From the NCBI GenBank assembly GCA_016205965.1, contig JACQSM010000069.1, positions 1-55,876 of the forward strand: a DNA stretch of 55,876 bases. The letters run 5' to 3'. The notes under the pieces are model-generated. The model searched no databases, was not told where the DNA came from, and worked only from the letters and a program-made list of their open reading frames with translations. The translations under genes and the position numbers were made by a program. The stretch is from Candidatus Uhrbacteria bacterium (GTDB lineage: Bacteria; Patescibacteriota; Patescibacteriia; SG8-24). Shown here piece after piece: positions 1-53,549 of the stretch. Each line of letters opens with the position of its first letter. The stretch's first letter is position 1.

Positions 1-11
1 GAGCCATGTGG

Positions 12-47
12 AACCGACCGTTGCAAAATGGTCGGTTTTACTTTTAT
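12..47 (+). terminator. Terminator-like hairpin directly after GAGCCATG at the window edge
   Basis: Stem accgacc (13-19) pairs with ggtcggt (30-36), followed by tttacttttatt. The window opens with gagcca, the same 6-mer that ends tRNA-Gln at 48017-48022. An upstream tRNA outside the window is possible but unseen. Confidence 0.35.
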
Positions 48-1098: not shown

Positions 1099-1383
1099 AT
1101 GGAAATCCATTCAAATCAAGAAATTCTTGAGCGTCGGAAGGAAATCGAGCAGGAACTCGAGGATATGCTCAAGGAGACCGAGAGCGATTTTTCATTGCAG
1201 GATGTGAAAAACTCGATTTTTCGCGAAGAAGACAATGACGACATGATGAAAATCGTGATGATGTTCGATCGCGGCGGAGACAGCTCGGAATTGAGCAATG
1301 TTCTTGAGCTCGTGACGGACGCATGGAATTATTTTCCGCATGCGGCCATCGGCGGCAAGGCCCCGGTCGAGATGTTGCGGTAA
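1099..1383 (+). CDS. Small acidic hypothetical protein (94 aa)
   Basis: Starts 11 nt after the Fic stop and ends 3 nt before the next gene. It is Glu/Asp-rich and has no motif I recognise. Confidence 0.6.
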   Translation: MEIHSNQEILERRKEIEQELEDMLKETESDFSLQDVKNSIFREEDNDDMMKIVMMFDRGGDSSELSNVLELVTDAWNYFPHAAIGGKAPVEMLR

Positions 1384-1386
1384 AAT

Positions 1387-2130
1387 ATGAAACCGTCGTT
1401 TGATTTAGACAAAATCAAATTCGCTACGGATCAGCCGACTTATGAGAAAGCGGTTGATCTGTATGAGTCTGGAAAAGTGACACGATTTGAGGAAGGAATC
1501 GGCTCTTATTCGGCTGTAGTGCTCGGGTCTCGCCCTTATCGTGTTTCAATTGAGGCACGGCGGTTCGGTTTGGGAAATTGCGAATGTTATCTCGGCCAAC
1601 AAGATATGCTTTGCAAACACATGGTCGCCTTATCAATTTGTGCCATAATGGGCGACAAAAAATTGACCAAGGAAGAAAAGAATCGTGTCAGTAGCCCTGT
1701 TTGTAGCGGTAAACGGGGAGAATTAAGCAAAAATGATTTGGCTCAAACGAAAATGGCCATCACCTCGGCCGTGAAATACATCAAAGGCTATAACGGACCC
1801 TCTCGCCTCTGGTTTTCCTATCAAAATTCGCTTGATGAAGGTTGCGCCCGATTGGCTAAATTGGTTTCTGATTTGCCCGTAAGCGAGCAAACCGCCGCAC
1901 TGCCGGTTGATTTACTGTTACGTCTGGATAAAAAGTTGTGCGCGGGTGGCGTCGACGATTCCAACGGTACGGTTGGCGGCTTTATCCAAGAAGTCGTTTT
2001 AATGCTTCAAGAATATGCAAAACTCGATCAAAAATGCATTAAGACGTTTGAAAAGCTATGCGGTAAAGAGACCTGTTTCGGCTGGGAGGAGCCGTTGGTG
2101 AGGATAGTCGATGAGGGTTTGGGCGAATAG
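1387..2130 (+). CDS. SWIM zinc-finger domain protein
   Basis: CECYLGQQDMLCKH fits the SWIM signature CxCx(n)CxH. The C-terminal half looks helical and Cys-containing. The gene is tightly coupled to the two upstream genes. Confidence 0.8.
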   Translation: MKPSFDLDKIKFATDQPTYEKAVDLYESGKVTRFEEGIGSYSAVVLGSRPYRVSIEARRFGLGNCECYLGQQDMLCKHMVALSICAIMGDKKLTKEEKNRVSSPVCSGKRGELSKNDLAQTKMAITSAVKYIKGYNGPSRLWFSYQNSLDEGCARLAKLVSDLPVSEQTAALPVDLLLRLDKKLCAGGVDDSNGTVGGFIQEVVLMLQEYAKLDQKCIKTFEKLCGKETCFGWEEPLVRIVDEGLGE

Positions 2131-2143
2131 ACCGTTTTGGATT

Positions 2144-2165
2144 ATTGGATTAATAATCCAATTTT
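2144..2165 (+). terminator. Intrinsic terminator after the SWIM gene
   Basis: Stem attggatt / aatccaat with loop aat, followed by ttt. Confidence 0.5.
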
Positions 2166-2257
2166 ACGCCGCCAAACACGCCAACCCGCGTAGCTTCGCC
2201 GTGCTCACCCGGGCCGCGCGGTAGACCTCGGGCAATTCGGTAAACACGTATACGTCG

Positions 2258-2338
2258 GAGCCATGAGCGGACGTGTGTGGCGACCCACATGCGTCTGGTC
2301 AAAAGCCAGCCAAGAAATTGGCTGGCTTTTGTGTTTTT
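2258..2338 (+). repeat. Two-hairpin element, copy 1 (diverged)
   Basis: The first 46 nt (gagccatgagcggacGtGtgtggcgacccacatgcgtctggtcaaa) differ at 2 positions from copies at 48017 and 49620. They are followed by a different 10-bp stem agccagccaa/ttggctggct with a GAAA loop and a T-rich tail. Confidence 0.8.
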
Positions 2339-2379
2339 CAAGCACACGCATCAACGGTATGGGAGCAGCCGCCGGAATC

Positions 2380-2388
2380 TGCTAAAAT
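2380..2388 (+). promoter_or_regulatory. Extended -10 element TGCTAAAAT, 9 nt upstream of the ATG at 2398
   Basis: It sits within the 12-mer GAATCTGCTAAA (2375-2386), which is repeated identically at 10081-10092 with the same spacing to an ATG. Confidence 0.45.
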
Positions 2389-2397
2389 GCGGATACC

Positions 2398-2760
2398 ATG
2401 ACCGAGCAACTGAAAACCTACCTCATCTATTTTTTGACGGGAGGGACGGTGACCGCCCTTATCGTCGGATTCGAGCGGAGCGGCAATAGGATGCTTTCCG
2501 GACTCGCGACGCTCGTACCGGTCTTTACGGTCGTTGCCTATCTCTTCATCGGCGATACGAAAGGCGGCGGAGCGGTTTCACAGCATGCCTGGCTCGTGCT
2601 TTTCGGTTCGCTCGCCTCGTGGGTTCCTTACATGATCGCGGTGGCGATCCTGGCTCCCAAGGTCGGTCCGCACAAGGCTATTCCCATCGGCCTCGCCGTA
2701 TTCTTCGTCTGCGCGCTTGCGTATCTGGAAGTCATACGCCGATACAAGCTGTTTCAGTAG
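2398..2760 (+). CDS. GlpM/DUF3147-like small integral membrane protein
   Basis: 120 aa with about 4 hydrophobic helices. The pattern LSGLATLVPVFTVVAYLFIG resembles the AGLxPLFPxF region of the GlpM family. Confidence 0.7.
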   Translation: MTEQLKTYLIYFLTGGTVTALIVGFERSGNRMLSGLATLVPVFTVVAYLFIGDTKGGGAVSQHAWLVLFGSLASWVPYMIAVAILAPKVGPHKAIPIGLAVFFVCALAYLEVIRRYKLFQ

Positions 2761-2902
2761 TTCGAGAATCCCGTCTTCCGACGATCGCGCGTTGCCGATC
2801 GAGCGATGAGCCGCGGGAGTATTGATCGTCAGGTTTCCAGCCCTCGGTGAAAGTGCTACCATTGGTGCGTATGCCCGCGTTCATCATTTATTTTGATAAT
2901 CC

Positions 2903-2932
2903 AGCCAGCCGCTAAGCTGGCTTTTGATTTTT
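2903..2932 (+). terminator. Hairpin agccagc/gctggct plus T-tract, abutting the next start codon
   Basis: A 7-bp stem with loop cgctaa, then tttgattttt. The stem sequence resembles hairpin 2 of repeat copy 1 (2304-2327). It could be a terminator or a 5' leader structure. Confidence 0.4.
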
Positions 2933-4927
2933 ATGCGTAAAAAGCTGTTCGTGAGTGCGTTCGGCGGCGCGCTGCTGGTTTTTGCTCAAATAGCTTCGGC
3001 GCAGACCGGAGCGGCGGTTCCCGAGTGCCAATTCACCGCCGCGCCGACGCCGGAACAACTCGCCGCCTGCCAGCAGGCGCAAGCCGCCGCGGCGCAGGCG
3101 CAGCAACAGGGTCAGCAGCCGCCCGCCGGCGCCGAGAACGGAGAGTCGTCAGGCCTGCCGCAGCCGCCTTCGGAGATGGGCCCGCCGGAAGGCGTCCAAA
3201 TGGGACCATCACCGGAGCAGATGGCCAAAATCAATGAGGCCAAACTCAAAGGGATGAAGTCAGGATTGAAAGGCATGCAGGCTGGGTATGCCAAGATCAA
3301 GGCGCAATACGACAAGATCGAGAAGGCGGGCACATTGATTCCGCAGGCCGACAAGGATGGACTGGCCGAAGCGCGCGGGCTCATCGATACCGTCAAGAAT
3401 GCGACGACCGCGGCGGAGATCGAGGATATCGATACTGATCATTTCAGCGATCTGCTGGAGAAGCTGAGCGCGGACATCGGCGATCTGCGGCAGCAGGCGG
3501 AGATGCTGAAGGGGCTGAAGCAAGCCGCGAAGGGCATGAAGACCGGCATCAAGATGTTCGATACGCAGATCGCCAAGCTGACAAAGCAGAACATCGCGGT
3601 TCCCGCCGACATCGCGGACATCCTCGGCCAAGTCAAAGCGCTCATCGCCGGAATCGAGGGGAACAAGTCCTGGGACGACCTCCAAGCCCTCGGCATCGAG
3701 AACGTCGACGAGCTGTTCGACAAGCTCGATGACGGCCGGGAGCGGATCGTCATGCTGGGCCGATGGCCGCAGGCGATCAAGCAGGTCGATAAGCAGCTCG
3801 CCGCCATGGACAAGACCGCCGTCCGTCTGAAGGCGCTCGCGGACAAGCTCAAGGGCGGAGAGATCGACGTCGCGGAGCGGCAGGCGCAGTATGCGGCCGG
3901 CGTCGCGGACCTGCGCAAGGCGCGCAATGACGCCGACGCGCTTGTCAAGGCCGGCGGCGGCACCGAAGCCTTCGACCTTCTCGAGACCGGGTTCTTCGAC
4001 AAGCTGGACGGCATCATCGAAAACCAGCGCGTCATCGAGACCATGGCCAACATGGGCAGGTTCGTGTCGGAATACCGCAAGGCGAGCCTGTCGATTCAGC
4101 AGCAGCTCGCCGCCCTCGCCAAGAAGAAAGTTGACACGACCGAACTGAAATCCCTCTTCGCCCAGTTCAAGGCCAAGGGAGACTCGATCGCCGCGCTGCT
4201 CAAGGTCAAGCCCATCGATACCGACGCCGTCCTGGCGGCGGTCAACGAGTTCGAGGATCTGCGCCTCGCGGCGTTGGATAAGATCGATGCCGCCCGAGGC
4301 GGCGCGGTCATGCCGTGGGATACGGGCGCGGTGACCGTCAAGGAAATCAAGATCCCCAAGGCGATGGATACCTTCATCGAGAGCAATAAAGAAAAGGAGC
4401 TGAAGACCGAACAGGCGAAACCGCCGGTCGCGCCGCCGGCCCCCACGGTCTCCGGCGAGGGGCTGTTGATCGAAGCGGAGAACGAGAACGCGAGCCACAT
4501 CCTGCCGCTGGCGCAGCGTCCGGCGACCAACATGAAGGAGATCAATCCCGGCTGGCGTCCGCCGTACTCCGGCACGGGTGATTGGTATCTCGCGGCCAAG
4601 GGCGAATGGTTGTCGTATGACTTCACCGTGGCTCAGGATGGCGCTTACAACGTTTGGGTGCGCGATTACGTCGATAAGTTCCAGCCCAAAGGCGTGCGCC
4701 GCTTCGTCGTGAGCTTCGATGGCGCGGCCTACGGCACGTTCGCCGAAGTCGACAAGCCGACGTCGAGCGCGAAAGGCGATTTCGGGTGGCATAAGGTCGG
4801 CGCGGGCATCCCGCTGTCGGCGGGGACGCATACCATGAAGGTAATGAAGGAGGACACGACGAGCGGCGCGGCGGTGCTCGACGCCTTCTACCTTACTGTG
4901 GGCGGCGAGACTCCGGCGGAGAAATAA
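2933..4927 (+). CDS. Secreted coiled-coil protein with C-terminal carbohydrate-binding-module-like domain
   Basis: Signal peptide MRKKLFVSAFGGALLVFAQIASAQ, then a Q/A/P-rich linker and a long Lys/Asp/Ala-rich helical region. The C-terminus starts LLIEAENE...DWYLAAKGEWLSYDFTV...GTHTMKV...LDAFYLT, typical of CBM6/35-like beta sandwiches. Confidence 0.8.
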   Translation: MRKKLFVSAFGGALLVFAQIASAQTGAAVPECQFTAAPTPEQLAACQQAQAAAAQAQQQGQQPPAGAENGESSGLPQPPSEMGPPEGVQMGPSPEQMAKINEAKLKGMKSGLKGMQAGYAKIKAQYDKIEKAGTLIPQADKDGLAEARGLIDTVKNATTAAEIEDIDTDHFSDLLEKLSADIGDLRQQAEMLKGLKQAAKGMKTGIKMFDTQIAKLTKQNIAVPADIADILGQVKALIAGIEGNKSWDDLQALGIENVDELFDKLDDGRERIVMLGRWPQAIKQVDKQLAAMDKTAVRLKALADKLKGGEIDVAERQAQYAAGVADLRKARNDADALVKAGGGTEAFDLLETGFFDKLDGIIENQRVIETMANMGRFVSEYRKASLSIQQQLAALAKKKVDTTELKSLFAQFKAKGDSIAALLKVKPIDTDAVLAAVNEFEDLRLAALDKIDAARGGAVMPWDTGAVTVKEIKIPKAMDTFIESNKEKELKTEQAKPPVAPPAPTVSGEGLLIEAENENASHILPLAQRPATNMKEINPGWRPPYSGTGDWYLAAKGEWLSYDFTVAQDGAYNVWVRDYVDKFQPKGVRRFVVSFDGAAYGTFAEVDKPTSSAKGDFGWHKVGAGIPLSAGTHTMKVMKEDTTSGAAVLDAFYLTVGGETPAEK

Positions 4928-5464: not shown

Positions 5465-7063
5465 ATGCAGGTAACGCTAAGAGTCACGAACTTAACGAAG
5501 GAGACCGCGAAAAACTTCGAAAATGTCGCGGCCTCCATCGAGAATGTAATGGCCGTCGACACGTGGCCGGGCAGGGCGGAGATCGACGTCCTGAAGGAGG
5601 AAGCGATTCCCGCGATTGTCGCCGCGCTCCGCGCGTCCGGCTTCGAGGTTCGCACGGAAAATGAAACGGCGGTTTCCGCCGGTCAGGCCGATGAGACGCA
5701 TCACGTCTACGTCGACGGCATGACCTGCCGGAGCTGCGAAATCACCATCGAACGGAAATTCAAGCGCGTCCGCGGCGTGCGCCGCGCCGACGCCGATGCC
5801 GCCCGCGGCGTCGTGAAACTCGTCTGCGAGGGCGGCTGCGTGCCGGACATCGGCGAACTTCGCGGGGCGCTCAAGGGGCATGAGTATTCGGTGCGGCGCG
5901 TCGGCGCGGGCGATGCCGAGCCGCAAGGAGAACGGCCGTCGTTCATGCGGCTGGTCGGCTTGTTCGCGTTCGTCATCCTGCTCGGTTCGCTGCTTTCGAA
6001 GCTCGGCCTCTTCCGGCAGCAATTCAACGTCGCGGGTTCGATGAGCCTCGCGGCGGCGCTCACGCTCGGCCTCGTCGCCGGTTCTTCGTCGTGCATCGCC
6101 GTTTCGGGCGGGCTGCTGCTTTCATCGGCGGCGAAATTCCGGGAACGCTATGGCGGCCTGTCGGCAACCGGGCGCATGCGGCCGGTCTTCATGTTCGTCG
6201 CCGGCCGCACCCTCTCCTACGGCCTTCTCGGCGGCGCCATCGCCGCGATCGGCAAGGCGTTCACGCCCTCGCCGCTCGTCACCGGCGCGCTCATCGTCGC
6301 CGCCGCCGTCTTCATGCTGGTCATGGGGCTGGACATGCTCAAGATCGCGCCCCGATGGCTCAAGTCGGTCCTGCCGCGCATGCCCAAGTCGCTCTCGCAC
6401 CGGATCTTGGACGCCGAAGGGAAAGAACATCCCGTCATGCCATTCCTGCTCGGCGCGAGCACGTTCTTCCTGCCCTGCGGCTTCACCCAGTCGCTGCAGC
6501 TCTATGCGCTGACGGCGGGAAGCTTCCTGAAAGGCGGGCTGATCCTCGGCGCCTTCGCCCTCGGGACCGCGCCGGCGCTTCTGGCGCTCGGCTGGGCTTC
6601 GAGTTCTTTGAAAGGCAAAGCGGGCCGGCTGTTCTTCCAGTTCTCGGGAGCGCTCGTCATCGTCCTGGGCCTGTGGAACGTCCAGAACGGATTCACCGTG
6701 GCCGGATACCCGCTCTCCTTGCCGGAGCTTGGCACGGGAGCCGTCGCGGCCGGCAACGGCGCGAACGTCGATGTGCCGGAGGTCGTCGATGGCGTACAGG
6801 TCATCAGGATGGCGGTCGGCGGCTCGGATGCGCCGTATTCTCCTGACACGCTCACGGTGAAGGCTGGTATTCCGGTGCGTTGGGAGATCGACGGCGTCAA
6901 CGTCGCCGGCTGCATCTCCTACCTGCAGTCGAGGAAGCTCGGTATCGGCATACAGCTGCGCCAAGGGCTCAACGTCGTCGAATTCACGCCGAAGACGCCA
7001 GGGACGTACGCTTTCAGCTGCTCCATGGGCATGTTCCGAGGCACGATCGAGGTCGTTTCTTAA
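5465..7063 (+). CDS. HMA domain / DsbD_2 (TauE-like) membrane protein / cupredoxin-like fusion
   Basis: An N-terminal Cys-less ferredoxin-like segment is followed by a canonical HMA domain (VDGMTCRSCE). The polytopic core carries conserved Cys (SSSCIAV, FFLPCGFTQ). The C-terminal cupredoxin-like part reads TLTVKAGIPVRWEI...GTYAFSCSMGMFRGTIEVV. Confidence 0.85.
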   Translation: MQVTLRVTNLTKETAKNFENVAASIENVMAVDTWPGRAEIDVLKEEAIPAIVAALRASGFEVRTENETAVSAGQADETHHVYVDGMTCRSCEITIERKFKRVRGVRRADADAARGVVKLVCEGGCVPDIGELRGALKGHEYSVRRVGAGDAEPQGERPSFMRLVGLFAFVILLGSLLSKLGLFRQQFNVAGSMSLAAALTLGLVAGSSSCIAVSGGLLLSSAAKFRERYGGLSATGRMRPVFMFVAGRTLSYGLLGGAIAAIGKAFTPSPLVTGALIVAAAVFMLVMGLDMLKIAPRWLKSVLPRMPKSLSHRILDAEGKEHPVMPFLLGASTFFLPCGFTQSLQLYALTAGSFLKGGLILGAFALGTAPALLALGWASSSLKGKAGRLFFQFSGALVIVLGLWNVQNGFTVAGYPLSLPELGTGAVAAGNGANVDVPEVVDGVQVIRMAVGGSDAPYSPDTLTVKAGIPVRWEIDGVNVAGCISYLQSRKLGIGIQLRQGLNVVEFTPKTPGTYAFSCSMGMFRGTIEVVS

Positions 7064-7076
7064 CCTCTCATTCAGT

Positions 7077-7283
7077 ATGACAACCACACTCATCATCACC
7101 GGCATGCACTGCGCTTCATGCAAAGCGCTCATCGAAGACGTCTGCTCGGAGATCGCCGGCGTGCGCTCTTGTTCGGTCGATGTCGCCAAAGGCGAAGCGG
7201 TCGTCGAACACGACGAGTCCGTCGCTCCGTCGCTCCTCGCGAAGGAAATCGAAGGGCTCGGTAAATACGGCGTCCGCGTATGA
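7077..7283 (+). CDS. copZ: CopZ-like copper chaperone (single HMA domain)
   Basis: 68 aa with [14 protein letters not shown], the GMxCxxC motif. Confidence 0.9.
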
Positions 7284-10012
7284 CCCCTCCAAACTTTCTC
7301 GATATCGGCGCCGCCGGCGAATCGGCGCCGCGGGAAGATGCCGCCGGCCAACCGCCGGCGATCCGACCGTCGGCGGATGCATCGTCGCTTGCCTTGCGAC
7401 TGACCACGGACATCGACGCCAAGGGGAGCCTGCAAGCCGGCCCCGACGGCAAGCCGCAGTTCACGGGGAGTCTCCATATCTCGAAGTCGAACATCATCGA
7501 ATTCCCGGAAGGCGTTCGAGAAGCGGAGGAGTTGGCCAAGCTCCTCCAAAAGACGCTGAACATGGGCGCGATTCTCGAGAAGGCGGGCGCTCTTGAGCCG
7601 GAAGTCCGGCCGATGGCGCTGCCGTCCGCACCGTCAGCTTCGGCCGCCGCCGTGCCGCCGGCCCGCGCGGAGGAGTGTCGCGTCACCTTCAACGTCTTCG
7701 GCATGCACTGCGCCAGCTGCGCCGGCCTCATCGAGCGCAAGGTGAGGAAGGTGCCCGGCGTGAAGGAGGTCAACGTGAATTTCGGCGCTGAGAAAGCGCG
7801 GGTCGTCTTCGCTGGCGGCATTGCCAGTGAAGAGAAGATCAAGGCGGCGGTGAAAGCCGCCGGCTATCGCGCCGAGGTCGCGGACCAGAAGGATCGCGAG
7901 TTCGAACGGAAGAAACGGGCCGAAGAGGTCGCATCCTATAAGAAACGGTTCCTGGTCGGCCTCGTCTTCAGCATCCCGCTCGCGTACTTCATGCTGCTCG
8001 ACTTCTTCGGGTGGATGCCGTTCCGCCAGGCGGTCCTGCCGCGCATGGGCTTCGTTTCGCTTCTGCTCGCGCTGCCGGTCCAATTCATCCTCGGCGCCGG
8101 CTTTTACAAGGGGATGTGGTCGAGCCTGAAGATGAAGACGTTCAACATGGACAGCCTCATCGCCATCGGCACGAGCACGGCCTTCGTCTACAGCCTGTAT
8201 GAGTTCGTCCGTTATGTGGCGAAAGCCGGCACCGTCTGGGCGCCGATGGGCGCGAAGATTCCCGATCTCTACTTCGAGATCGGCGCGTTCCTCATCACCT
8301 TCGTGCTCATGGGCAAATGGCTGGAATCGAAGGCGAAGGGCAGGACGAGCGCGGCCATCGAGAAGCTCATGGGCCTCCAGGCCAAGACCGCCCGGGTCAT
8401 CCGAGGCGCGGCCACGATCGACATCCCGGTCGATCAGGTGGTCGAGGGCGATACGATCGTCGTCCGTCCGGGCGAGAAGATCCCGGTCGATGGCGCCGTG
8501 ACCAAGGGATTTTCCTCGGTCGATGAGTCGATGCTGACGGGCGAAAGCATCCCGGTCGAAAAGAAAGAAGGGGACGCGGTGATCGGTTCGACCATCAACA
8601 AGAACGGCAGCTTCGAGTTCAAGGCGACCAAGGTCGGATCGGAGACCGCGCTCGCCCAGATCATCCGCCTCATCGAGGACGCGCAGGGATCGAAGGCTCC
8701 GATCCAGGCGGTCGCCGACCGCATCTCCGCCTGGTTCGTGCCGGCGGTCATCGGCATCGCCGCCCTGACGTTCGTCGTCTGGTACTTCGTCATCGGCGCG
8801 TCGCTCACTTATGCGCTCCTGGCCTTCGTGTCGGTCATCGTCATCGCCTGCCCCTGCGCGCTCGGTCTCGGAACGCCGACGGCGGTGATGGTCGGCACCG
8901 GCAAGGGCGCCGAGTACGGCATCCTCATCAAGGGCGGCGAACCGCTCGAGGCCGCGTCGAAGGTGAATGCGGTCGTCTTCGACAAGACCGGCACGCTCAC
9001 CAAGGGGAAACCGGAGGTGACCGACATCGTTTCCCTCTCCCAACTGGATGAGGACGACATCCTCGGCCTCGCCGGCAGCCTCGAAAAGTCGTCGGAGCAC
9101 CCGCTGGCGGAAAGCATCTACGAGTACGCCGTCCAGGAGAACGCGCCCTGCGCCGAAGTCACCGACTTCCACGCCGTTCCCGGACACGGCGTCGTCGGCA
9201 AGATCGGCGGCGAGGAATTCCATCTCGGCAACCGCAAACTGATGGCCCAGCTCGGCCTCGACGTGAGCAAGGTCGAACGGAAGCTGCAGCGGCTGGAAGA
9301 GGCCGGAAAAACGGCGATGCTGCTTGCCACCAAGGAGTGCATCATCGGCATCGTGGCGGCGGCCGACACGCTCAAGGATACGTCCCTCGAGGCCGTGCAG
9401 CGGCTCCAAAAGATGAACGTGGCCGTGTACATGATTACCGGCGACAATCAGCGGACGGCGGCCGCCATCGCCAAGCAGATCGGCATCGTCAACGTGCTGG
9501 CCGAGGTGCTGCCGCAAGACAAGGCGCACGAAGTCCGCAAGCTGCAGGAGCAGGGCTTCAAGGTCGCCATGGTCGGCGACGGCATCAACGACAGTCCGGC
9601 GCTGGCCCAGGCCGACGTCGGCATCGCCATGGGCAGCGGCACGGACGTCGCCATGGAAACCGGCGGCATCGTCATCATCAAGAACGACCTTCGCGACGTC
9701 ATCGGCGCGATCCGTTTGAGCAAGTCGACGATGCGAAAGGTGCGGCAGAACCTGTTCTTCGCTCTGTTCTACAACGTCATCGGCATCCCCGTCGCCGCCC
9801 GGCTCTTCGCCGTCTGGAACATCGTGCTCCGGCCGGAACTGGCGGGGCTTGCCATGGTGTTCAGTTCGGTGTCGGTGATCTCGAACTCGCTGCTGCTCAA
9901 GCGGTTCCATCCGCACAAGCGCGATTGGCTGTCGGATCTCGCGCCGGCGTTCATGACCGCCGTATTCACGCTGGTCTTCGCCGGATTCGCTAAATTGAGC
10001 GGGAAGGCCTGA
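7280..10012 (+). CDS. copA: Copper-translocating P1B-type ATPase (CPC type)
   Basis: HMA motif [18 protein letters not shown]6 motif [18 protein letters not shown] and [10 protein letters not shown]. The ATG overlaps the copZ stop as ATGA. A start at 7280 implies about 135 aa of non-canonical N-terminus. The internal Met at 7613 is an alternative start. Confidence 0.9.
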
Positions 10013-10031
10013 ACGCAGTCCATTACGGTGC

Positions 10032-10061
10032 GCGACGGCCGGACCTCACGCCGGCCGTCGC
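10032..10061 (+). other. 11-bp perfect GC-rich stem-loop after copA, without a U-tract
   Basis: gcgacggccgg / ccggccgtcgc with an 8-nt loop. No T-run follows, so terminator function is uncertain. Confidence 0.35.
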
Positions 10062-10085
10062 GTCGTATCTCCGAGGTGCTGAATC

Positions 10086-10094
10086 TGCTAAACT
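10086..10094 (+). promoter_or_regulatory. Extended -10 element TGCTAAACT, 9 nt upstream of the ATG at 10104
   Basis: Lies within GAATCTGCTAAA (10081-10092), identical to 2375-2386. The spacing to the ATG is also identical. Confidence 0.45.
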
Positions 10095-10103
10095 ATAGTG
10101 CGT

Positions 10104-12230
10104 ATGCCCAGTTATACCTGTCCGATGCATCCCGAGATACGACGCGACGCTCCCGGGCTCTGCCCGGAGTGCGGCATGCGGCTGCTGCCGGAGAAAGCCG
10201 AATCCGAACCTCATGGCGGACACGGCGGCATGAAGATGCCGGACGGAGTCGCGCCGCCGGGCAAGCATGAAGGTCATTCGCTCGCGATCTTCGCGCGGAA
10301 GTTTTGGGTGTCATTGTTTTTGACGCTGCCGGTGGTTCTTCAGTCGGGATTGTGGCAGAAGATTTCCGGGCGGCCGTTCCCGTCATTTCCGGGTTCGGCC
10401 TTTTTTCCGTTCGCCCTGGGCTCGATAATTTTTTTCTATGGCGGTTGGGTGTTCCTCCAAGGAGCGTTGCGCGAAGTTCGCGCCCGTCTGCCGGGCATGA
10501 TGACGCTCATCGCCATCGCCATTTCCGCGGCGTATGCCTATAGCGTCTACGCGACGTTCTCGGGCAAGAGCGGCGACCTCTACTGGGAGCTGACGACGCT
10601 CATCACCGTCATGCTGCTCGGCCATTGGCTGGAGATGCGGGCGGTGCAGAGCACGCAGGGCGCGCTCAAGGAACTTTCGAAGTTATTGCCGGACACGGTC
10701 GAGGTGGTGAGGAACGGCAAACCGGAGATCGTCGAACTTTCGGAATTGCGGGAGGGCGATCTTTTCATCGTGCGGCCGGGAGGCAAGGTGGCCGCCGACG
10801 GTGTCGTCGCCGAGGGCAAGACGGAATTGGACGAGTCCATGGTCACGGGCGAGTCGCGGCCGGTGCGCAAGGGAGTCGGGAGCGAAGTGATCGCCGGCAC
10901 GGTCAACGGAGACGGATCGCTCACTGTTCGAGTCACGAAGATCGGCGAAAAGACGTTTTTGGCCGGCGTCATGCGCCTCGTCGCCGAAGCGCAGGCCTCG
11001 AAATCGCGGCTGCAGATCCTTTCCGACCGCGCCGCCCAGGTCCTCACGGTGATCGCCGTCGGCGGCGGGTTTCTCACGCTGACCGCGTGGCTGTTCGTCG
11101 CCGAACCCGGCTACGCCGTCGAACGCATGGTCGCGGTGCTGGTCATCGCCTGTCCGCACGCCTTGGGCCTCGCCGTGCCGCTCGTCGCTTCGATCTCGAC
11201 CATGCTCGCCGCCAAGAACGGGTTTTTGGTCAAACAGCGGCTCGCCCTCGAGGCCGCCAAGGATGTCGACGTCGTTCTCTTCGATAAAACGGGCACCTTG
11301 ACCAAGGGGGCTTATGGAGTCGATCGCGTCTGGAATTTTTCCGGCGCGGATACGGCGGAAGTGTTGCGCCTCGCCGCCGCCGTCGACGGTCCTTCCGAAC
11401 ACGTCATCGCCAAAGCGATCGCGGCCAAGGCGCGGCAGGACGGCATCAGTGTCCAATCCGTTTCCGATTTTTCGCGAGTCCCCGGCAAGGGCGTGAAAGG
11501 CATCGTCGCCGGCGAGGAAATTTCCGCCGGCGGCCGGGCGCTGCTTGAACAGCGCGAAGGCGCCGTCCCGGGGCGCTACGGGACGGAGATCGACGCTGAA
11601 AATAAGAAAGGGAAGACCGTCGTCTACGTGCTGAAGGGTGGGCAACCGTTCGGCGCGATCGCCCTGGCGGACGTCATCCGCGAGGAGTCGCGACAGGCGG
11701 TCGCCGATCTCAAGAACATGGGCCTCAAGGTCGCCATGATCACCGGCGATTCCGAGGACGTGGCCGCCTGGGTGGCCGGGGAGCTCGGCATCGATGAGGT
11801 TTTCGCCAAAGTCCTGCCGGAAAAGAAGGCTGAAAAAGTGAAATTGCTGCAGCAAAAAGGGCAAAAGGTGGCGATGGTCGGCGACGGCATCAATGACGCG
11901 CCCGCGCTGACGCAGGCGGACCTCGGCATCGCCATCGGCGCCGGCACGAACGTCGCCATCGAATCCGCCGGCATCATTTTGGTGAGGAACGATCCGCGCG
12001 ATATCCCCAAGATCATCACGCTTTCGCGTCGCACCTACGCGAAGATGATCCAGAACATCCTCTGGGCGTCGGGCTACAACATCGTCGCCCTGCCGCTTGC
12101 TGCCGGCGCGCTCGCCTTCAAGGGCATCGTGCTGCAGCCGGCCTGGTCGGCGGTTTTCATGTCGCTCTCCACGGTCATCGTCGCGGTCAACGCCATGGCG
12201 CTGCGGAAAGCGAAATTGGGGCGGGAGTGA
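10104..12230 (+). CDS. copB: Heavy-metal P1B-type ATPase, CPH (CopB-like) subtype, with N-terminal CPMHPE metal-binding zinc-ribbon-like domain
   Basis: [24 protein letters not shown] at the N-terminus, then a His-rich stretch HGGHGG..HEGH. TGES, TM motif [18 protein letters not shown] and [10 protein letters not shown] are present. The track ORF starts at GTG 10098; the ATG at 10104 is preferred. Confidence 0.9.
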
Positions 12231-14974: not shown

Positions 14975-15107
14975 ATCCGGTCACGGGATGCTGGCGCCGC
15001 ATGGCCTGGCGGCGAAACGGATGCTACCATGACAACGCTTCCGCAGTTGACGCCGAAGCATGCCGGGTGATAAGCCACCCACGCCGCTATTATTCCGACG
15101 CCATATT

Positions 15108-16643
15108 ATGACCCAAGACCAGGCCCTGGCCATCATGAAATCCGGTGCCAACGTCTTCCTGACCGGAGAGCCGGGCGCCGGGAAAACGCACACCGTTAAC
15201 CGCTACGTCGACTATCTGCGGCAGCACGGCATCGAGCCGGCCCTGACCGCCTCGACCGGCATCGCCGCGACCCATATTTCGGGCATGACCGTCCATTCCT
15301 GGTCCGGCATCGGCATCGCCGCCGAACTGTCGCCCTACGATCTCGATCGCATTTCGGGCAATGAGCGCATCTACAAGCGCCTGTCCAAAGCCAAGGTGCT
15401 GATCGTCGACGAGATCTCGATGCTCGACGCCCGGACGCTCGGCATGGTCGACCAAGTTTGCCGCGCCGTCCGGCGGAACCACCTGGCCTTCGGCGGCCTG
15501 CAGACCGTTTTCGTCGGCGATTTTTTTCAGCTGCCGCCGGTCGCCCGCGAAGGGCGCGGCGCCCAATTCGCTTTTCGTTCATCGGCCTGGGCCAAGCTCC
15601 AGCCGACCGTATGCTACCTGTCCGAGCAGTACCGCCAGGACGACCCGGCGTATCTGTCGGTGCTCACGGCGATCCGTTCGAACGACGTCCGTCAGGAACA
15701 CGTCGGCGCGCTCGAGTCGCGGGCCGCCTCGCGCGCCGGCGCCGGCCAGGACGTCGTCAAACTTTTTTCGCACAACATCGACGTCGACCGGATCAACGAC
15801 AGGGAGCTGGCCAAGCTCGAGGCCAAGGAACGGTCGTTCTCGATGTCTGCCAAGGGTCCGGCGCATCTCATCGACACGCTCAAGCGGAGCTGCTTGTCGC
15901 CCGAGGCACTCCGGCTCAAACCGGGAGCGGCGGTGATGTTCACCAGGAACAACCAGCCGGCCGGCTTCGTCAACGGGACGCTCGGCACGGTCGTCGGCTT
16001 CGACCACGACACCGGGTTCCCGAAAGTCAGGACTCGGCACGGCAGCGTCATCACCGCCGAGCCGATGGACTGGAAGATCGAGGACCAGGGCCAAGCCTTG
16101 GCCGCCGTCCAGCAGGTACCGCTGCGTTTGGCTTGGGCCATGACCATCCACAAGAGCCAGGGCATGAGCCTCGACGCCGCCGTCATGGATCTCGGATCGG
16201 CCTTCGAGTACGGCCAAGGGTACGTGGCGCTCTCGCGCGTCCGGCGTTTGTCGGGACTATTCCTGCTGGGCTGCAATCGGCGGGCGCTGGAGGTGCATCC
16301 GGAAATTTTGGAGGAAGATCGCGAGCTGCGGCTGATGTCGCAAGCCGCCGAATCGGAGTTCGGGACGATGGCCGGCGACGAGCGCGACGACATCGAACGC
16401 CGCTTCATCGAGGCCTGCGGCGGCAGGATCGCGGCCGAGGCCGAAAAGAAGAAAAGTTTTTCGGTCGAAGACGTGCGCAAATCCCATCCCAAGGCCTACT
16501 CGCGCTGGTCGCCCGAAGAAGAACAGAAATTGGTCGCGATGTTCAAGGACGGCCGGGCCGTCAAAGAGATCGCCCGGCAGCTCGATCGAAAACGCGGCGG
16601 CATCACCGCCCGCCTCAAAAAGCTCGGACTCATCGAATCGTAG
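15108..16643 (+). CDS. Pif1/RecD-family ATP-dependent DNA helicase with C-terminal HTH
   Basis: Walker A GEPGAGKTH, Walker B LIVDEISM, FVGDFFQLPPV and MTIHKSQGMS. The C-terminus reads WSPEEEQKLVAMFKDGRAVKEIARQLDRKRGGITARLKKLGL. Start trimmed to MTQDQ. Confidence 0.85.
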   Translation: MTQDQALAIMKSGANVFLTGEPGAGKTHTVNRYVDYLRQHGIEPALTASTGIAATHISGMTVHSWSGIGIAAELSPYDLDRISGNERIYKRLSKAKVLIVDEISMLDARTLGMVDQVCRAVRRNHLAFGGLQTVFVGDFFQLPPVAREGRGAQFAFRSSAWAKLQPTVCYLSEQYRQDDPAYLSVLTAIRSNDVRQEHVGALESRAASRAGAGQDVVKLFSHNIDVDRINDRELAKLEAKERSFSMSAKGPAHLIDTLKRSCLSPEALRLKPGAAVMFTRNNQPAGFVNGTLGTVVGFDHDTGFPKVRTRHGSVITAEPMDWKIEDQGQALAAVQQVPLRLAWAMTIHKSQGMSLDAAVMDLGSAFEYGQGYVALSRVRRLSGLFLLGCNRRALEVHPEILEEDRELRLMSQAAESEFGTMAGDERDDIERRFIEACGGRIAAEAEKKKSFSVEDVRKSHPKAYSRWSPEEEQKLVAMFKDGRAVKEIARQLDRKRGGITARLKKLGLIES

Positions 16644-47948: not shown

Positions 47949-48022
47949 TCGGGGGTCGTCTAATGGTAGGACAGCAGCCTTTGAAGCTGCGTGTCATGGT
48001 TCGAATCCATGCCCCCGAGCCA
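47949..48022 (+). tRNA. tRNA-Gln (anticodon UUG), CCA encoded
   Basis: Folds as TCGGGGG-TC-GTCT-AATGGTA-GGAC-A-GCAGC-CTTTGAA-GCTGC-GTGT-CATGG-TTCGAAT-CCATG-CCCCCGA-G-CCA. The U1-A72 pair and G73 discriminator fit bacterial tRNA-Gln. Confidence 0.9.
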
Positions 48023-48092
48023 TGAGCGGACATATGTGGCGACCCACATGCGTCTGGTCAAAGACCCATCACGAAAGTGGTGGGTTTTTGAT
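48017..48092 (+). repeat. Two-hairpin element, copy 2 (overlaps the last 6 nt of tRNA-Gln)
   Basis: Sequence: gagccatgagcggacatatgtggcgacccacatgcgtctggtcaaagacccatcacgaaagtggtgggtttttgat. Hairpin 1 is at 48027-48056. Hairpin 2 (GAAA loop, then TTTTT) is at 48064-48089 and probably acts as the tRNA terminator. Confidence 0.9.
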
Positions 48093-48215
48093 CCCGCGTG
48101 ATACTTTTAGCGCTATTTTTACGCATTCATGCCTGGCCGCCGCTGAGCGCAAGCGATGGGAAGAAGTTCGTCTGCATGGTATCCTCCCAAAAGGAACATA
48201 TTGATAACTAACGAT

Positions 48216-49424
48216 ATGTATAGTTACATCATTCTCCAGGTTCTTGCGGCCGGCGTCGGCATCTTTGCGGCGATACTGGTCATCAAGGGATTGCTCCTCA
48301 TCAGGAGAAAGTCGGATCGCGGCACGAGGATGACGATCGGTGTGGGGGTTTCCGCCCTGCTATTGGCGGCAATTGTCTTTGTCGTTTCAGGAATCTCCTA
48401 TCCGCTGCACTTCGCGATGCCGCCGACAATGCAAGCGATGACGCACGACAAGAAACCCCCGTCCCTGCCGATACTCGCGATGTTCGAGTTCCTTTCCAAG
48501 AGGGACGGGTTCGAGAATGTCGCCGATATCGGCCGGGACCCGAACGAGGTTCCGCTGCCGGCTGGCAGGCGGGCGCCGGAGACCGTGAAGTTTTCCGTCA
48601 AAGCAAAGGAGGTCGTCTCCGAGGTGGCCCCGGGCATCTTCTTCAACTATTGGACGTACGATGGCCAGGTGCCCGGGCCGATGTACCGTGTGCGGGTCGG
48701 TGACTTGGTGGAGCTCACGCTCACGAATGACTCCACGAGCATACATCCGCACAACATCGATCTCCATTCGGTCACGGGCCCTGGTGGCGGTGCCGCGGTC
48801 ACGCTGGTACAGCCCGGTGAGACGAAATCGTTCCGGTGGCTCGCCAAGAATCCCGGACTTTATGAGTACCACTGCGCCACGCCCAACGTCAGCACGCACA
48901 ACTCTCACGGTCAGTACGGACTGATCCTAGTCGAGCCTGAAGGCGGATTACCCGAGGTCGATAGGGAGTTCTATCTGATGCAGGGCGAACTCTACACGAT
49001 GGGCGATATCGGCAAGAAAGGCCTTATGGCGTTCGATACGCAAGGCCTCATCGACGGCACGCCGACCTACATCACCTTCAATGGCAAGATCGAGCAGGCG
49101 CCTCGCATGAAGGCGAAGGTCGGCGACCGCATCCGCATGTACGTGGGCGGTGGCGGGGTCAATCTCATTTCATCATTCCATGTCATCGGGGAGATTTTCG
49201 ATGTCGTATATCCGGAAGGCGCGATTGGCGACGGTTCGGCGGTACTCAAGAACGTGCAGACGACGGCGGTGCTCCCCGGCGGTTCGACGATCGTCGAGTT
49301 CACTGTCGACGTTCCGGGGAAGTACGTGCTCGTGGATCACGCGCTCGCGAGAATGAACAAAGGCGCTTGGGCGGTCCTCGAGGTGACGGGAGATCCGCAG
49401 CCGGATGTCTACACAGCGCTATAG
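48216..49424 (+). CDS. nirK: Copper-containing nitrite reductase (NirK-like two-domain cupredoxin) with N-terminal two-helix membrane anchor
   Basis: HPHNIDLH gives the T1 His, catalytic Asp and T2 His. YEYHCATPNVSTHNSHGQYGLILVEP gives the T2 His and T1 Cys/His. SFHVIGEIFD and LVDHALARM are also present. The track ORF starts at 48156; the ATG at 48216 begins the first TM helix. Confidence 0.85.
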   Translation: MYSYIILQVLAAGVGIFAAILVIKGLLLIRRKSDRGTRMTIGVGVSALLLAAIVFVVSGISYPLHFAMPPTMQAMTHDKKPPSLPILAMFEFLSKRDGFENVADIGRDPNEVPLPAGRRAPETVKFSVKAKEVVSEVAPGIFFNYWTYDGQVPGPMYRVRVGDLVELTLTNDSTSIHPHNIDLHSVTGPGGGAAVTLVQPGETKSFRWLAKNPGLYEYHCATPNVSTHNSHGQYGLILVEPEGGLPEVDREFYLMQGELYTMGDIGKKGLMAFDTQGLIDGTPTYITFNGKIEQAPRMKAKVGDRIRMYVGGGGVNLISSFHVIGEIFDVVYPEGAIGDGSAVLKNVQTTAVLPGGSTIVEFTVDVPGKYVLVDHALARMNKGAWAVLEVTGDPQPDVYTAL

Positions 49425-49537
49425 TTTGGCGCCGTTAGAGGTCTCGACGAGGTAGTCGTTGAACGAGGAAAAACGGAACAGTCCAAAATTAGATAATTGT
49501 GTCCTGTTGATCCGTTTTTGGTTGTGATATAGCTTGA

Positions 49538-49553
49538 GACCCACGTGCGTCTG
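49538..49553 (+). repeat. 16-nt partial copy of the hairpin-1 3' arm
   Basis: gacccacgtgcgtctg is identical to 49645-49660 of copy 3, including the G variant. Confidence 0.6.
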
Positions 49554-49619
49554 CGTGCCGGAAAAGGTCTTGAGAAAGCTCTCAACGGCCTTGCGGGTGG
49601 GGTACCAGACCCGCCTGCG

Positions 49620-49695
49620 GAGCCATGAGCGGACATATGTGGCGACCCACGTGCGTCTGGTCAAAGACCCATCACGAAAGTGGTGGGTTTTTGAT
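49620..49695 (+). repeat. Two-hairpin element, copy 3
   Basis: Identical to 48017-48092 at 75 of 76 positions (cacGtgc versus cacAtgc). Confidence 0.9.
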
Positions 49696-49765
49696 TGCTC
49701 CGGAAACCCCTCAAAAAATGTGGTATAATAACCGCCTGTCTAGTATATCCATGCAAGTTATTTAT

Positions 49766-50785
49766 ATGCTGAAAAAAATATTTTTTTTCTTGATTGCGGG
49801 AGCGGCTCTGGCGGCGATCGCGTGGTTCGGTTATCAGAAATTTACTACTACTACTACTACTACTAAATTTCCTGGGAAAATTACCATTGGTCACACGCCT
49901 TGGCCCGGCTATATCGGATTGTATATTGCAGCTGACAAGGGCTTTTTTAAAGACAACGGTCTTGACGTTGATCTTAAGGCTTATCCTGGACTTGCGGAGC
50001 TCTCTAAGGATTACGTCGCGGGAAACCTCCAGGGGAGAAGCAATTTGACTCTTGATGCCATTAACGAGGCCCATGACGGTTTAGATCAGAAGGTGGTAAT
50101 TGTAATCGATTACAGTAAAGGTTCAGACGGCATCATCGCTTCTAAAAATATCGAGAAATTTTACGATATCAAGGGTAAGAAGGTCGCTTTTGAAGCCGAG
50201 GGCCTCGAGGAGTTTTTTCTTCGTTACGCGTTGAACAATAACCAGATTAGCCTGAATGATATTATCCCCCTCAATCTTGATCCGCAAAAATCCGCTGAAG
50301 CCCTGGTAAAGGGTGAAGCCGATGTCGCGGTGACGTATGAACCGTTCATGGGGAATGCGCTGCTTGAGAGCGGAGGTCATAAAATCTTTACGTCGGCCGA
50401 TGCCCCCGGCTTGATCACCGACGTGCTGACATTCCGTTCCGATTTCGTCAAGGATTATCCGGGAACGATCGAAGCGATCGTCAATGCCTATTTTAGGGCG
50501 ATTCAATTCTGGAAAGAAAATCCCGCAGAGGCCAATAGTATTTTAGCCGAGTATCTTGACACGCCACTGGAACAAGTACCAAGCCAACTTGATGGTGTAT
50601 ACGTTCTTAATAAAGAGGATAACCGGACCGCCTTCACGTTCGCGGCCGGTGTGCAATCCCTTTACGGTAACATGCGGCAAATCGGCGAATTTGTTCATGG
50701 AATTCGTGAGAAACGTGGTGAGATACGCAGGGTTGATACCGATGCCATGATCGACCCAAGTTTTATCCGGAAGATTTCTAAGTGA
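49766..50785 (+). CDS. NMT1/SsuA-like periplasmic substrate-binding protein, with no cognate permease or ATPase nearby
   Basis: Signal/anchor MLKKIFFFLIAGAALAAIAWFG, a Thr7 linker, then ITIGHTPWPGYIGLYIAADKGFFKDNGLDVDLKAY, typical of the NitT/TauT-type binding fold. An alternative ATG is at 49751. Confidence 0.8.
   Translation: MLKKIFFFLIAGAALAAIAWFGYQKFTTTTTTTKFPGKITIGHTPWPGYIGLYIAADKGFFKDNGLDVDLKAYPGLAELSKDYVAGNLQGRSNLTLDAINEAHDGLDQKVVIVIDYSKGSDGIIASKNIEKFYDIKGKKVAFEAEGLEEFFLRYALNNNQISLNDIIPLNLDPQKSAEALVKGEADVAVTYEPFMGNALLESGGHKIFTSADAPGLITDVLTFRSDFVKDYPGTIEAIVNAYFRAIQFWKENPAEANSILAEYLDTPLEQVPSQLDGVYVLNKEDNRTAFTFAAGVQSLYGNMRQIGEFVHGIREKRGEIRRVDTDAMIDPSFIRKISK
49844..49864 (+). repeat. (ACT)7 trinucleotide microsatellite inside the binding-protein gene
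   Basis: Seven perfect ACT units encode a TTTTTTT linker. Confidence 0.9.
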
Positions 50786-50817
50786 GCCGCGCGGCTGATA
50801 TAAACAGACCCCTCTCC

Positions 50818-53019: not shown

Positions 53020-53043
53020 TAATCATAGGTACGCAATCACATT

Positions 53044-53427
53044 ATGACCATGAAAAAACGCATTTTGTTAGTTGACGACGAGGATGAAATTCTTTCACTC
53101 TATGGCGAGGTGCTCGCCGAAGAGGGCTTTGAGGTATTGATCGCACATGATGGAGCGGAGGGGGTCAAAGTCGCCAAGCAGGAGAAACCCGACCTCGTCC
53201 TAATGGATCTTAAAATGCCGGTCATGGACGGTATGGACGCATTCATGCAGATTCATGATGACCCTGCCACGCGAGCCATAAAAGTTGTTTTCCTGACCGC
53301 TTTCGGTGATCCTGAAGTGGTGGGGGCTGACATCAAGATATCCGAAGAGATCGGTGCCGCGGGTTATATCAGAAAGGGAATTACACTTGATGAATTAGTA
53401 AAAAAGGTCAGGGAGTATATACGGTAG
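53044..53427 (+). CDS. Stand-alone response-regulator receiver domain (CheY-like)
   Basis: ILLVDDEDE, phospho-acceptor LVLMDLKMPVMDG, FLTAFGD and YIRKG. No output domain (127 aa). Confidence 0.9.
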   Translation: MTMKKRILLVDDEDEILSLYGEVLAEEGFEVLIAHDGAEGVKVAKQEKPDLVLMDLKMPVMDGMDAFMQIHDDPATRAIKVVFLTAFGDPEVVGADIKISEEIGAAGYIRKGITLDELVKKVREYIR

Positions 53428-53465
53428 ATTTCTAGGTGTTCCGAGAGTGAGTTGGTGAGCCACGT

Positions 53466-53493
53466 AAAAGCCGCGCCGTTCGGAGCGGTTTTT
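53466..53493 (+). terminator. Terminator-like hairpin after the receiver gene, preceded by GAGCCACG
   Basis: Stem ccgc-g-cc / gg-a-gcgg with loop gttc, flanked by aaaag on the left and ttttt on the right. gagcca lies at 53457-53462. Confidence 0.45.
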
Positions 53494-53549
53494 ACGTACC
53501 GCGCAATTTCTGATAAGATATGTCGCATAAACGTCTGTTTTTTCGCCAT

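Follow-up and report, generated by a model that had tools for sequence, protein, structure and literature searches.

The contig JACQSM010000069.1 of a Candidatus Uhrbacteria bacterium (55,876 nucleotides (nt)), analyzed here as a complete contig and referred to as the window, contains one repeat family, recovered by a repeat search of the window and made up of three 76-nt copies in a single orientation at positions 2258-2333, 48017-48092, and 49620-49695 (copies 1, 2, and 3, respectively). The repeated module consists, in order, of the last six nucleotides of a tRNA (GAGCCA), UGA, a first hairpin (hp1), a conserved single-stranded linker (GRUCAAWA), and a terminator hairpin with a GAAA loop. 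Copy 2, a type A trailer (+ strand, 48017-48095; hp1 48027-48056, terminator 48059-48090), now appears to serve a tRNA-Gln(TTG) gene with encoded CCA (+ strand, 47949-48022; ARAGORN, Rfam tRNA 63.8 bits), which ends in CCGAGCCA and whose last six nucleotides, GAGCCA, are the first six of the copy. It is followed by a NirK-type copper nitrite reductase gene (+ strand, 48216-49424; Pfam Cu-oxidase_3 and Cu-oxidase_2), whose Patescibacteria homologues are named nitrite reductase, by a conserved right flank (RF), and by copy 3, a displaced type A trailer (+ strand, 49620-49698; hp1 49630-49659, terminator 49662-49693) immediately preceded by the tRNA-Asn-type end CGGAGCCA. Copy 1, a type B trailer (+ strand, 2258-2336; hp1 2268-2297, linker GGUCAAAA, terminator 2300-2331), stands near the left end of the contig and scores 104 bits against a covariance model of the module. 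Sequence comparison identifies the 76-nt unit as the 3' trailer module of a tRNA gene, predicted to be the native trailer of tRNA-Asn(GTT) in a Patescibacteria clade; this clade is probably Uhrbacteria-like, as judged from the names of the nearest NirK and FtsX homologues only.

Identity to copy 2 is 82% for copy 1 and 99% (75/76) for copy 3. Over the first 46 nt of the unit, copy 1 departs from copy 2 solely at positions 16 and 18 (both A>G), and copy 3 solely at position 32 (A>G). In the fold, position 16 lies opposite C35, position 18 opposite U33, and position 32 opposite U19, and the three changes convert an A.C mismatch into G-C, A-U into G.U, and U-A into U.G, respectively. The two-hairpin fold is obtained for all three copies, comprising hp1 (12-13 bp) and a terminator-like hairpin with its GAAA loop and U tail; the z-scores are -5.3 to -6.7 relative to dinucleotide shuffles, none of 200 of which folds as well. 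Hairpin 2 has a stem of 13-16 bp, a GAAA loop, and a UUUU(U)G tail, features that define an intrinsic (Rho-independent) terminator, and is predicted to be one. All of the architecture and the A-to-G changes described in a first-pass annotation of this DNA, as well as the retained position, GAAA loop, and U tail of the copy 1 terminator, are confirmed by alignment and fold. Taken alone, the window copies offer weak evidence for structural conservation, since about half of random stem transitions keep a standard or wobble pair and the three pair-preserving transitions observed correspond to a p of roughly 0.1.

The covariance-model E-values of the window copies range from ~1e-21 to 1e-25, and a search of the window with filters off returned no copy beyond these three. 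A 16-mer of the hairpin occurs four times in the window against 0.08 expected, and a fourth, partial piece (GACCCACGTGCGTCTG, 49538-49553) is identical to 16 nt of the hp1 3' arm. No Rfam 15 family covers hp1 at the gathering threshold or at E up to 10; over the window, Rfam reports three tRNAs alone, and its best sub-threshold matches over the repeat (E 2-5) are unrelated. A small open reading frame (ORF) starting at the conserved ATG of CCATGA was considered and rejected, as the hairpin length of 29-31 nt breaks the frame and the substitutions are non-synonymous.

Homologous modules occur in other genomes, whose loci or contigs are designated by L-numbers, and the family comprises 13 solid copies in nine genomes: five adjoin tRNA-Asn, one adjoins tRNA-Gln (window copy 2), and seven are displaced. 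Every copy opens with a tRNA 3' end. The module lies directly 3' of tRNA-Asn(GTT) in L009, L092, L132, L137, and L146, and the anatomy of a tRNA 3' trailer, located between the tRNA 3' end and a terminator, is present in all six tRNA-adjacent copies. The tRNA-Asn-type end that precedes window copy 3 is found on five of the seven displaced copies, the two exceptions being L009_B (with TTGAGCCA) and L146_2 (with TGGGAGCCA). A homologous large secreted protein is encoded upstream of the tRNA in L092, L132, and L146, and these loci are therefore orthologous. The first-pass annotation had missed both the start of the unit within a tRNA gene and its identity as the clade's tRNA-Asn trailer.

The nearest NirK relatives (77-87% identity) bear homologous modules. 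L009 has the order tRNA-Asn(GTT), module, nirK, an RF of ~90 nt, second module, multicopper oxidase, and copper ATPase, while L011 carries the module upstream of nirK and the beginning of RF downstream; nirK, which has the same flanks in L009 and L011, is cargo between copies 2 and 3. In L013, a small insert that bears a terminator of its own follows an intact tRNA-Asn; next come a 19-nt direct repeat matching the 3' end of this tRNA, the module, and nirK. Only ~110 nt separate the intact tRNA-Asn from this repeat (L013 3766-3903), in front of which lies a T-arm-like hairpin whose loop is enlarged (GTGGG-TACCGAAAGGAAT-CCCAC); the short interval resembles what an almost completely deleted element would leave behind. 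The metagenome-assembled genomes (MAGs) of L002, L003, L009, L013, and L019 are labelled Gammaproteobacteria, Methylomirabilis, or Binatia; the nearest NirK or FtsX relatives of their contigs are from Uhrbacteria or Patescibacteria, so that the labels are probably taxonomic mislabels or the contigs misbinned.

The native tRNA-Asn trailers of L092, L132, L137, and L146 and the displaced copies of L146 and L204 were added from GTDB genomes by pattern scans, the hits of which were then sorted by folding and the covariance model. An exact-word scan with the window's own hp1 gave no match in GTDB representative genomes, plasmid and phage collections contained no match, and the only two exact-word matches in JGI metagenomes (L006 and L007) lie inside a coding region and are ascribed to chance. 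Among the looser structured patterns, L093 is a chance match at the end of an ABC-transporter gene, and approximately 110 of the 119 loci from one scan were also chance matches, from which the real members were separated by folding and the covariance model. Seven pattern matches on viral contigs failed the covariance model, and a second hp1 pattern yielded none on viral contigs. The loci bearing hp1 are only four nirK-bearing loci, together with five more from two DNA-pattern scans; more distant NirK loci, including Uhrbacteria L017 and L018 with tRNA-Asn nearby, are devoid of it.

Conservation of the structure is apparent across the family. In a model-guided alignment of 14 matches, from which the structure counts were taken, 96.8% of cells hold standard pairs, and both partners have changed in 8 of the 13 pairs of hp1 and in 7 of the 14 of the terminator. 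The observed values were matched by none of 500 shuffles, pairing falls to 34-48% when the partners are slid by 1-3 columns, and both helices are recovered independently by MAFFT and RNAalifold. Moreover, the arms are shortened on both sides, a compensated length change, in L011, L132, and L146. In 10 of 13 copies, the tRNA-sense (+) strand gives a more stable fold than the - strand, and its wobble counts are 30 G.U versus 4 A.C in hp1 and 19 versus 2 in the terminator. This large excess of G.U over A.C points to selection on RNA, and hp1 thereby resembles the terminator, which functions at the RNA level. The earlier proposal that structure rather than sequence is conserved is borne out by many compensatory changes in both hairpins across the 13 family members.

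Two terminator alleles can be distinguished. Window copies 2 and 3 share their type A terminator (ACCCATCAC-GAAA-GTGGTGGGT), base for base, with the native tRNA-Asn trailers of L132 and L137, while the type B terminator (GCCAGCCAA-GAAA-TTGGCTGGC) of L204 is identical to that of copy 1, with L146_1 differing by 1 nt. Both types occur natively after tRNA-Asn. They are linked by intermediates with compensatory changes in L009_A, L013, L092, and L009_B, and stem 2 is therefore homologous, not replaced. Within the window, the stems of copies 1 and 2 align without gaps, with 9 of 18 stem bases identical and double (compensatory) changes in 4 of 9 pairs, so the description of the copy 1 stem as an unrelated replacement does not stand. 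Nor does the view of copy 1 as a diverged third copy: it is a separate type B allele, nearly identical to the L146 and L204 copies, rather than a decayed duplicate or a diverged descendant of copies 2 and 3. Its counterpart is L009_B, as both have a B-type terminator and both lie upstream of copper ATPases that are 76% identical at the protein level. Copies 2 and 3 represent a recent duplication (75/76 identical) made by the nirK insertion; the earlier judgment that a fresh duplication is unlikely consequently holds for copy 1 and fails for this pair.

The right end of the inserted DNA is marked by a displaced ancestral trailer. The closest syntenic relative, identified via FtsX (62% protein identity), is L002, in which tRNA-Gln(TTG) is followed by GAGCCACGTAAAA, a hairpin, and TTTTTACGTACCG. 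The same trailer recurs in the window at 53458-53502 (+ strand; GAGCCACGTAAAA, terminator hairpin, TTTTTACGTACCG), 5.4 kb downstream of the tRNA-Gln and at the right edge of a low-GC block of 49.7-53.5 kb, and the sequence 48023-53457 was therefore inserted between the tRNA-Gln and its original trailer. The resulting order is tRNA-Gln, copy 2, nirK, RF, copy 3, an operon for a substrate-binding protein (SBP), a histidine kinase (HK), and a response regulator (RR), and the ancestral tRNA-Gln trailer. In both L002 and L003, the tRNA-Gln has a plain terminator, with no hp1 and no insertion, and in the MAG of L002 nirK is located on another contig (L014). The segment from tRNA-Gln to a lipoprotein gene is inverted relative to FtsEX between the window (47949-54335) and L002 (11778-12606) or L003 (12079-12152).

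RF (+ strand, 49533-49619) starts with TTGAGACCCACGTGCGTCTG, which contains the partial hp1 3' arm, and closes with GGGGTACCAGACCCGCCTGCG, a stretch resembling a tRNA T-arm and acceptor, immediately ahead of GAGCCA. It is 74% identical to L009 7268-7356, and a three-way alignment shows it, with its opening TTGAGACCCAMGTRCG, to be conserved in the window, L009, and L146, where it occurs with hp1 and terminator. The cargo preceding it differs, being nirK in the window and L009 and an unrelated 198-amino-acid (aa) ORF in L146. RF is non-coding, as no reading frame is kept. Its interpretation as a minus-strand gene remnant was rejected, because the frames shift and the shared stretch is limited to five residues, and the presence of its 20-nt start in phage contigs L222-L224 (IMG/VR; identical over the examined stretch) inside an ORF (…TQTYVGLK…) was judged a chance occurrence.

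Arrays of such units are found elsewhere. L146 holds three junctions, arranged as tRNA-Asn and module; two genes and module; one gene, RF, GAGCCA, and terminator; followed by a type I restriction-modification (R-M) methylase. At the last of these (L146 5908-5962), RF and GAGCCA are followed directly by an A-type terminator with no hp1, so that hp1 can evidently be lost from a displaced junction. In L204, a 6-kb low-GC glycosyltransferase islet lies in front of the displaced copy. The cargo units of the window are a Fic/SWIM islet (1-2257), nirK (48.1-49.6 kb), and the SBP/HK/RR operon (49.7-53.4 kb).

The first of these units occupies the left end of the contig. Positions 1-46 (+ strand) consist of GAGCCATG and a plain terminator hairpin (AACCGACC...GGTCGGTTTT), with a weak covariance-model match over 1-46 (E 0.29); they are probably the last bases of a tRNA, perhaps tRNA-Asn, that we infer to lie upstream of the contig, joined to a replacement trailer brought by the Fic islet. 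That the contig opens exactly at GAGCCATG suggests an assembly break at the tRNA 3' end, possibly with the Fic islet present in part of the population. The low-GC islet proper (+ strand, 47-2257) has CG as its last bases, directly ahead of the GAGCCA that opens copy 1, and contains three genes, encoding a Fic/DOC protein (+ strand, 119/149-1087; Pfam Fic, E 9.5e-19), a 94-aa ORF (+ strand, 1099-1383), and a SWIM-like ORF of 247 aa (+ strand, 1387-2130). Its GC content is 45-52% versus ~63% in the host, and that at third codon positions is 0.48-0.63 versus ~0.8. The placement of copy 1 at a GC boundary is confirmed, as it sits at the islet edge: the sequence turns GC-rich near 2170, and 500-nt windows read 45-52% up to 2500, 56% in 2501-3000, and ~61-64% from 3001. 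An independent Logan contig (L008) is 100% identical over window positions 1197-2959. The Fic/DOC protein has a helix-turn-helix-like N-terminal region and is followed by two small ORFs without Pfam match, and the whole could be a toxin or defence-type islet. The Fic protein was not on record under either of two start choices, and a search with the SWIM-like ORF for DNA to the left of the contig returned only a 1.8-kb Logan contig.

Overall, these features are probably best accounted for by a structured tRNA 3' trailer that doubles as an att-like docking or junction repeat for small, integrase-less inserted gene sets. Insertions occur right at the 3' terminus of GAGCCA-ending tRNA genes, where they displace the old trailer and leave a predicted working one beside the tRNA. 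Within this account, it has been demonstrated that the module is linked to tRNA genes, that related copies exist in other genomes, that the hairpins covary, that the ancestral trailer has been displaced, and that cassette ends are conserved. Foreign DNA would enter between the tRNA and the old trailer, which would be shifted downstream with a few bases of the tRNA end, and the incoming DNA would provide a new trailer adjoining the tRNA. The copies would then be junction (att-like) repeats delimiting stacked small islets, with the left end reading off-contig tRNA, Fic/SWIM islet, copy 1, and copper-resistance genes. The module would be transcribed together with the tRNA, its pairings being held by selection on the RNA. 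In this setting, hp1 could act as RNA, in tRNA 3' processing, as an exonuclease block, or as a stable trailer RNA, or else could simply be needed for the recombination site to work. Two of the candidates named in the first-pass annotation, a structured trailer and a recombination site, are both apt.

The chances are roughly even that a site-specific recombinase supplied in trans carried out the insertions, with GAGCCA(YG) as its core. We infer such an enzyme because the junctions GAGCCATG (1 and 2258) and GAGCCAcG (53458) share just 6-8 nt, too short a stretch for homologous recombination, because L013 has a clean 19-nt repeat of the tRNA end, and because tRNA-Gln looks like a secondary site sharing its core with tRNA-Asn. 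For the nirK step alone, Campbell-type homologous recombination through the 76-nt module, nearly identical in copies 2 and 3, would be an alternative.

Several points weigh against the docking-site interpretation. No integrase, transposase, or other recombinase domain was detected with Pfam in the window genes or within a few kb around the copies in eight other genomes, the searched flanks including those of L009, L013, L092, L137, L146, and L204. The displaced tRNA fragment in the window is 6-8 nt, far shorter than the usual tRNA-derived att repeat, and the right ends of the three window islets are mutually dissimilar. In addition, the tRNA to the left of position 1 is presumed, being beyond the contig, the transcription of the trailer is a prediction, and the covariation alignment was fitted to the model and includes copies that share descent by recent duplication.

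A more far-reaching version is conceivable, albeit rather unlikely, in which the tRNA-Asn trailer is the attachment site of an undescribed Patescibacteria cassette-exchange system, operated by a trans recombinase and stacking its units behind GAGCCA-ending tRNA genes. With similarly low probability, its cassettes would be the integrase-less sets observed here (nirK, sensor operons, Fic toxins, R-M genes, and glycosyltransferases), with RF at one end and hp1 plus terminator at the other. If true, this would represent a tRNA-anchored analogue of the integron whose site works both as RNA, in the form of trailer and terminator, and as a DNA recombination target.

A related and improbable explanation holds that hp1 itself is the recombination site, recognized as a folded single strand in the manner of integron attC sites, the CTX phage attP, or IS200/IS605 ends, within a cassette platform behind tRNA-Asn and tRNA-Gln whose recombinase is encoded elsewhere. 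It would agree with the integrase-less cargo units of 1-3 genes stacked in arrays in the window and L146, each bounded by the same hairpin, with the strand-specific structure, with the half-hairpin (hp1 3' arm) at the RF start in three genomes, and with the cargo ORFs that end exactly at the TTGA of RF in L009 and L146. However, similarity between copies begins at GAGCCA, 10 nt before hp1 and not within it, the L146 junction without hp1 is made of GAGCCA and terminator, and the Fic islet and T0 junctions have just GAGCCA(YG) in common. There is also no GTTRRRY-type core and no IntI, the orientation of cargo genes is not uniform (L146 and L204), and the G.U bias of hp1 equals that of the terminator, which acts as RNA.

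It is equally improbable that the module regulates the copper and nitrogen genes located downstream of it (nirK, the sensor operon, multicopper oxidase, and copper ATPases), either in cis, as a leader or attenuator, or as a free small RNA, with its tRNA neighbourhood incidental. Of the copies, four (window, L009, L011, and L013) are situated 60-230 nt upstream of nirK, L009_B precedes the multicopper oxidase and copper ATPase, copy 1 precedes the copper-resistance cluster, and attenuators usually take the form of a hairpin with a terminator after it. Nevertheless, in L092, L132, L137, and L146 the module follows tRNA-Asn with unrelated genes downstream, a tRNA 3' end stands at the start of every copy, no alternative antiterminator pairing is evident in the folds, and the distant NirK loci, among them L017 and L018 with their nearby tRNA-Asn, function as counterexamples in having no hp1.

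A self-spreading selfish repeat of the repetitive extragenic palindrome (REP) or miniature inverted-repeat transposable element (MITE) kind, near tRNA genes by chance, would fit a short, palindrome-containing intergenic repeat in several genomes but is highly improbable: the many dispersed copies with inverted repeats or target duplications that define REP/bacterial interspersed mosaic elements or MITEs were not found, there being three copies only in 56 kb, even with search filters off, all in one orientation and at tRNA-end junctions, carriage at only four of the nirK-bearing loci and at five further loci from the pattern scans, no terminal inverted repeats, no target duplication besides the tRNA end, and five copies that are native trailers at orthologous tRNA-Asn loci. 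Ordinary segmental duplication, or an assembly artefact joining unrelated loci via the repeat, is suggested by the near-identity of copies 2 and 3 and by the contig start exactly at GAGCCA, but has very little probability left, since the architecture module-nirK-RF-module also occurs in the independent MAG of L009, the junction of SWIM-like ORF, copy 1, and GlpM-like gene is reproduced at 100% in a Logan contig, the single mismatch caps the exact repeat at 45 nt, presumably under the usual final k-mer sizes, and a 6-nt overlap cannot produce a misjoin at tRNA-Gln.

Among known systems, tRNA-Asn is a classic island target, and the Yersinia high-pathogenicity island and other islands at asn tRNA genes carry P4-like tyrosine integrases. 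Under the Islander principle (PMC4383910), insertion restores the target tRNA gene, and the distal border of the island can be recognized by a displaced fragment of the gene's 3' end. The islets resemble Islander-type islands in having foreign DNA directly behind a tRNA, a displaced tRNA 3' fragment at the far end, and tandem stacking. The closest known kind is the tRNA-anchored genomic island, three of whose four listed defining features are found: an intact tRNA at one end (tRNA-Gln(TTG) directly before copy 2), a displaced tRNA 3' fragment (GAGCCA(YG) at 2258, 49620, and 53458; the 19-nt repeat in L013), and foreign composition with absence from relatives (islets of 45-52% GC versus ~63%; L002 and L003 empty). 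The fourth, an integrase inside the island, is lacking, as no recombinase Pfam domain was found in the window genes or searched flanks. Unlike those islands, the present islets show no integrase in or beside any of them and are very small (0.7-3.8 kb), their repeat is mostly trailer (70 nt) with only 6-8 nt of tRNA (19 nt in L013), and this trailer contains a conserved, covarying RNA hairpin.

Cis-mobilizable elements (CIMEs), exemplified by the ICESt1/ICESt3 family of Streptococcus thermophilus, are att-flanked and integrase-less. CIMEs and tandem accretion share with the present locus integrase-less cargo between att-like direct repeats, stacked at one site and presumably mobilized in trans, whereas here no partner integrative and conjugative element or integrase was identified, the ends include a tRNA trailer mimic, and mobility is presumed. 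Integron cassettes with attC sites are comparable in their arrays of short cassettes and in imperfect-palindrome sites whose one-strand structure is conserved over sequence. In contrast, no integrase domain, and hence neither IntI nor attI, was found in the window or related loci; the R''-L''...L'-R' architecture of attC is absent, with no R/L boxes, no GTTRRRY in the unit, and a similarity boundary at GAGCCA upstream of, and thus outside, the hairpin; and the cassettes here have their own promoter-like sequences and mixed orientation in an array anchored at a tRNA. As for the RNA itself, the 3' external transcribed spacer (3'ETS) of leuZ in E. coli is a tRNA-trailer-derived RNA that sponges small RNAs. 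Such 3'ETS RNAs are likewise structured RNAs between a tRNA 3' end and an operon terminator, by-products of tRNA processing, with a conserved single-stranded stretch between two hairpins; unlike them, the present module belongs to Patescibacteria and has no sequence relation to them.

Other genes of the window provide further context. The sensor operon forms a low-GC islet (+ strand, 49699-53457; GC 47-51%) encoding an NMT1-type SBP, a Cache/HAMP/PAS HK, and an RR, as assigned by Pfam. Homologous SBP/HK/RR operons in other contigs of the candidate phyla radiation (CPR) have neither hp1 nor a tRNA nearby; hp1 was accordingly rejected as a part of this operon, and the module belongs to the junction, not to the cargo. 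Within the operon, an (ACT)7 run at 49844-49864 encodes seven threonines in the N-terminal linker of the SBP, an in-frame microsatellite whose length could vary. Downstream of copy 1, a copper-handling cluster (5465-12230) contains a DsbD_2-cupredoxin-HMA fusion and two P-type ATPases, which share a 240-nt repeat of 71% identity (9457-9696 and 11762-12001); the second is the one that is 76% identical to the ATPase after the second L009 module. A PIF1-like helicase gene (15060-16643) lies within the high-GC stretch that separates copy 1 from the core genes, a hint that part of the 2.3-41 kb region may also have been acquired.

Taken together, the findings account for how a small, reduced Patescibacteria genome uses one or two tRNA hotspots to acquire and reshuffle accessory genes; those seen here include nirK, a Fic toxin, copper-resistance genes, and a two-component sensor. 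In this clade, nirK travels as a cassette with recognizable ends. They also add a new RNA motif, absent from Rfam, in which a covarying hairpin lies in the tRNA-Asn trailer and can be used as a marker of island borders in MAGs. If no dedicated recombinase exists, the site would be a tRNA-linked insertion hotspot of the ordinary kind, distinguished by the unusually good conservation of its trailer; if one does, it would constitute a compact cassette platform in a phylum whose mobile-element biology is almost unknown.

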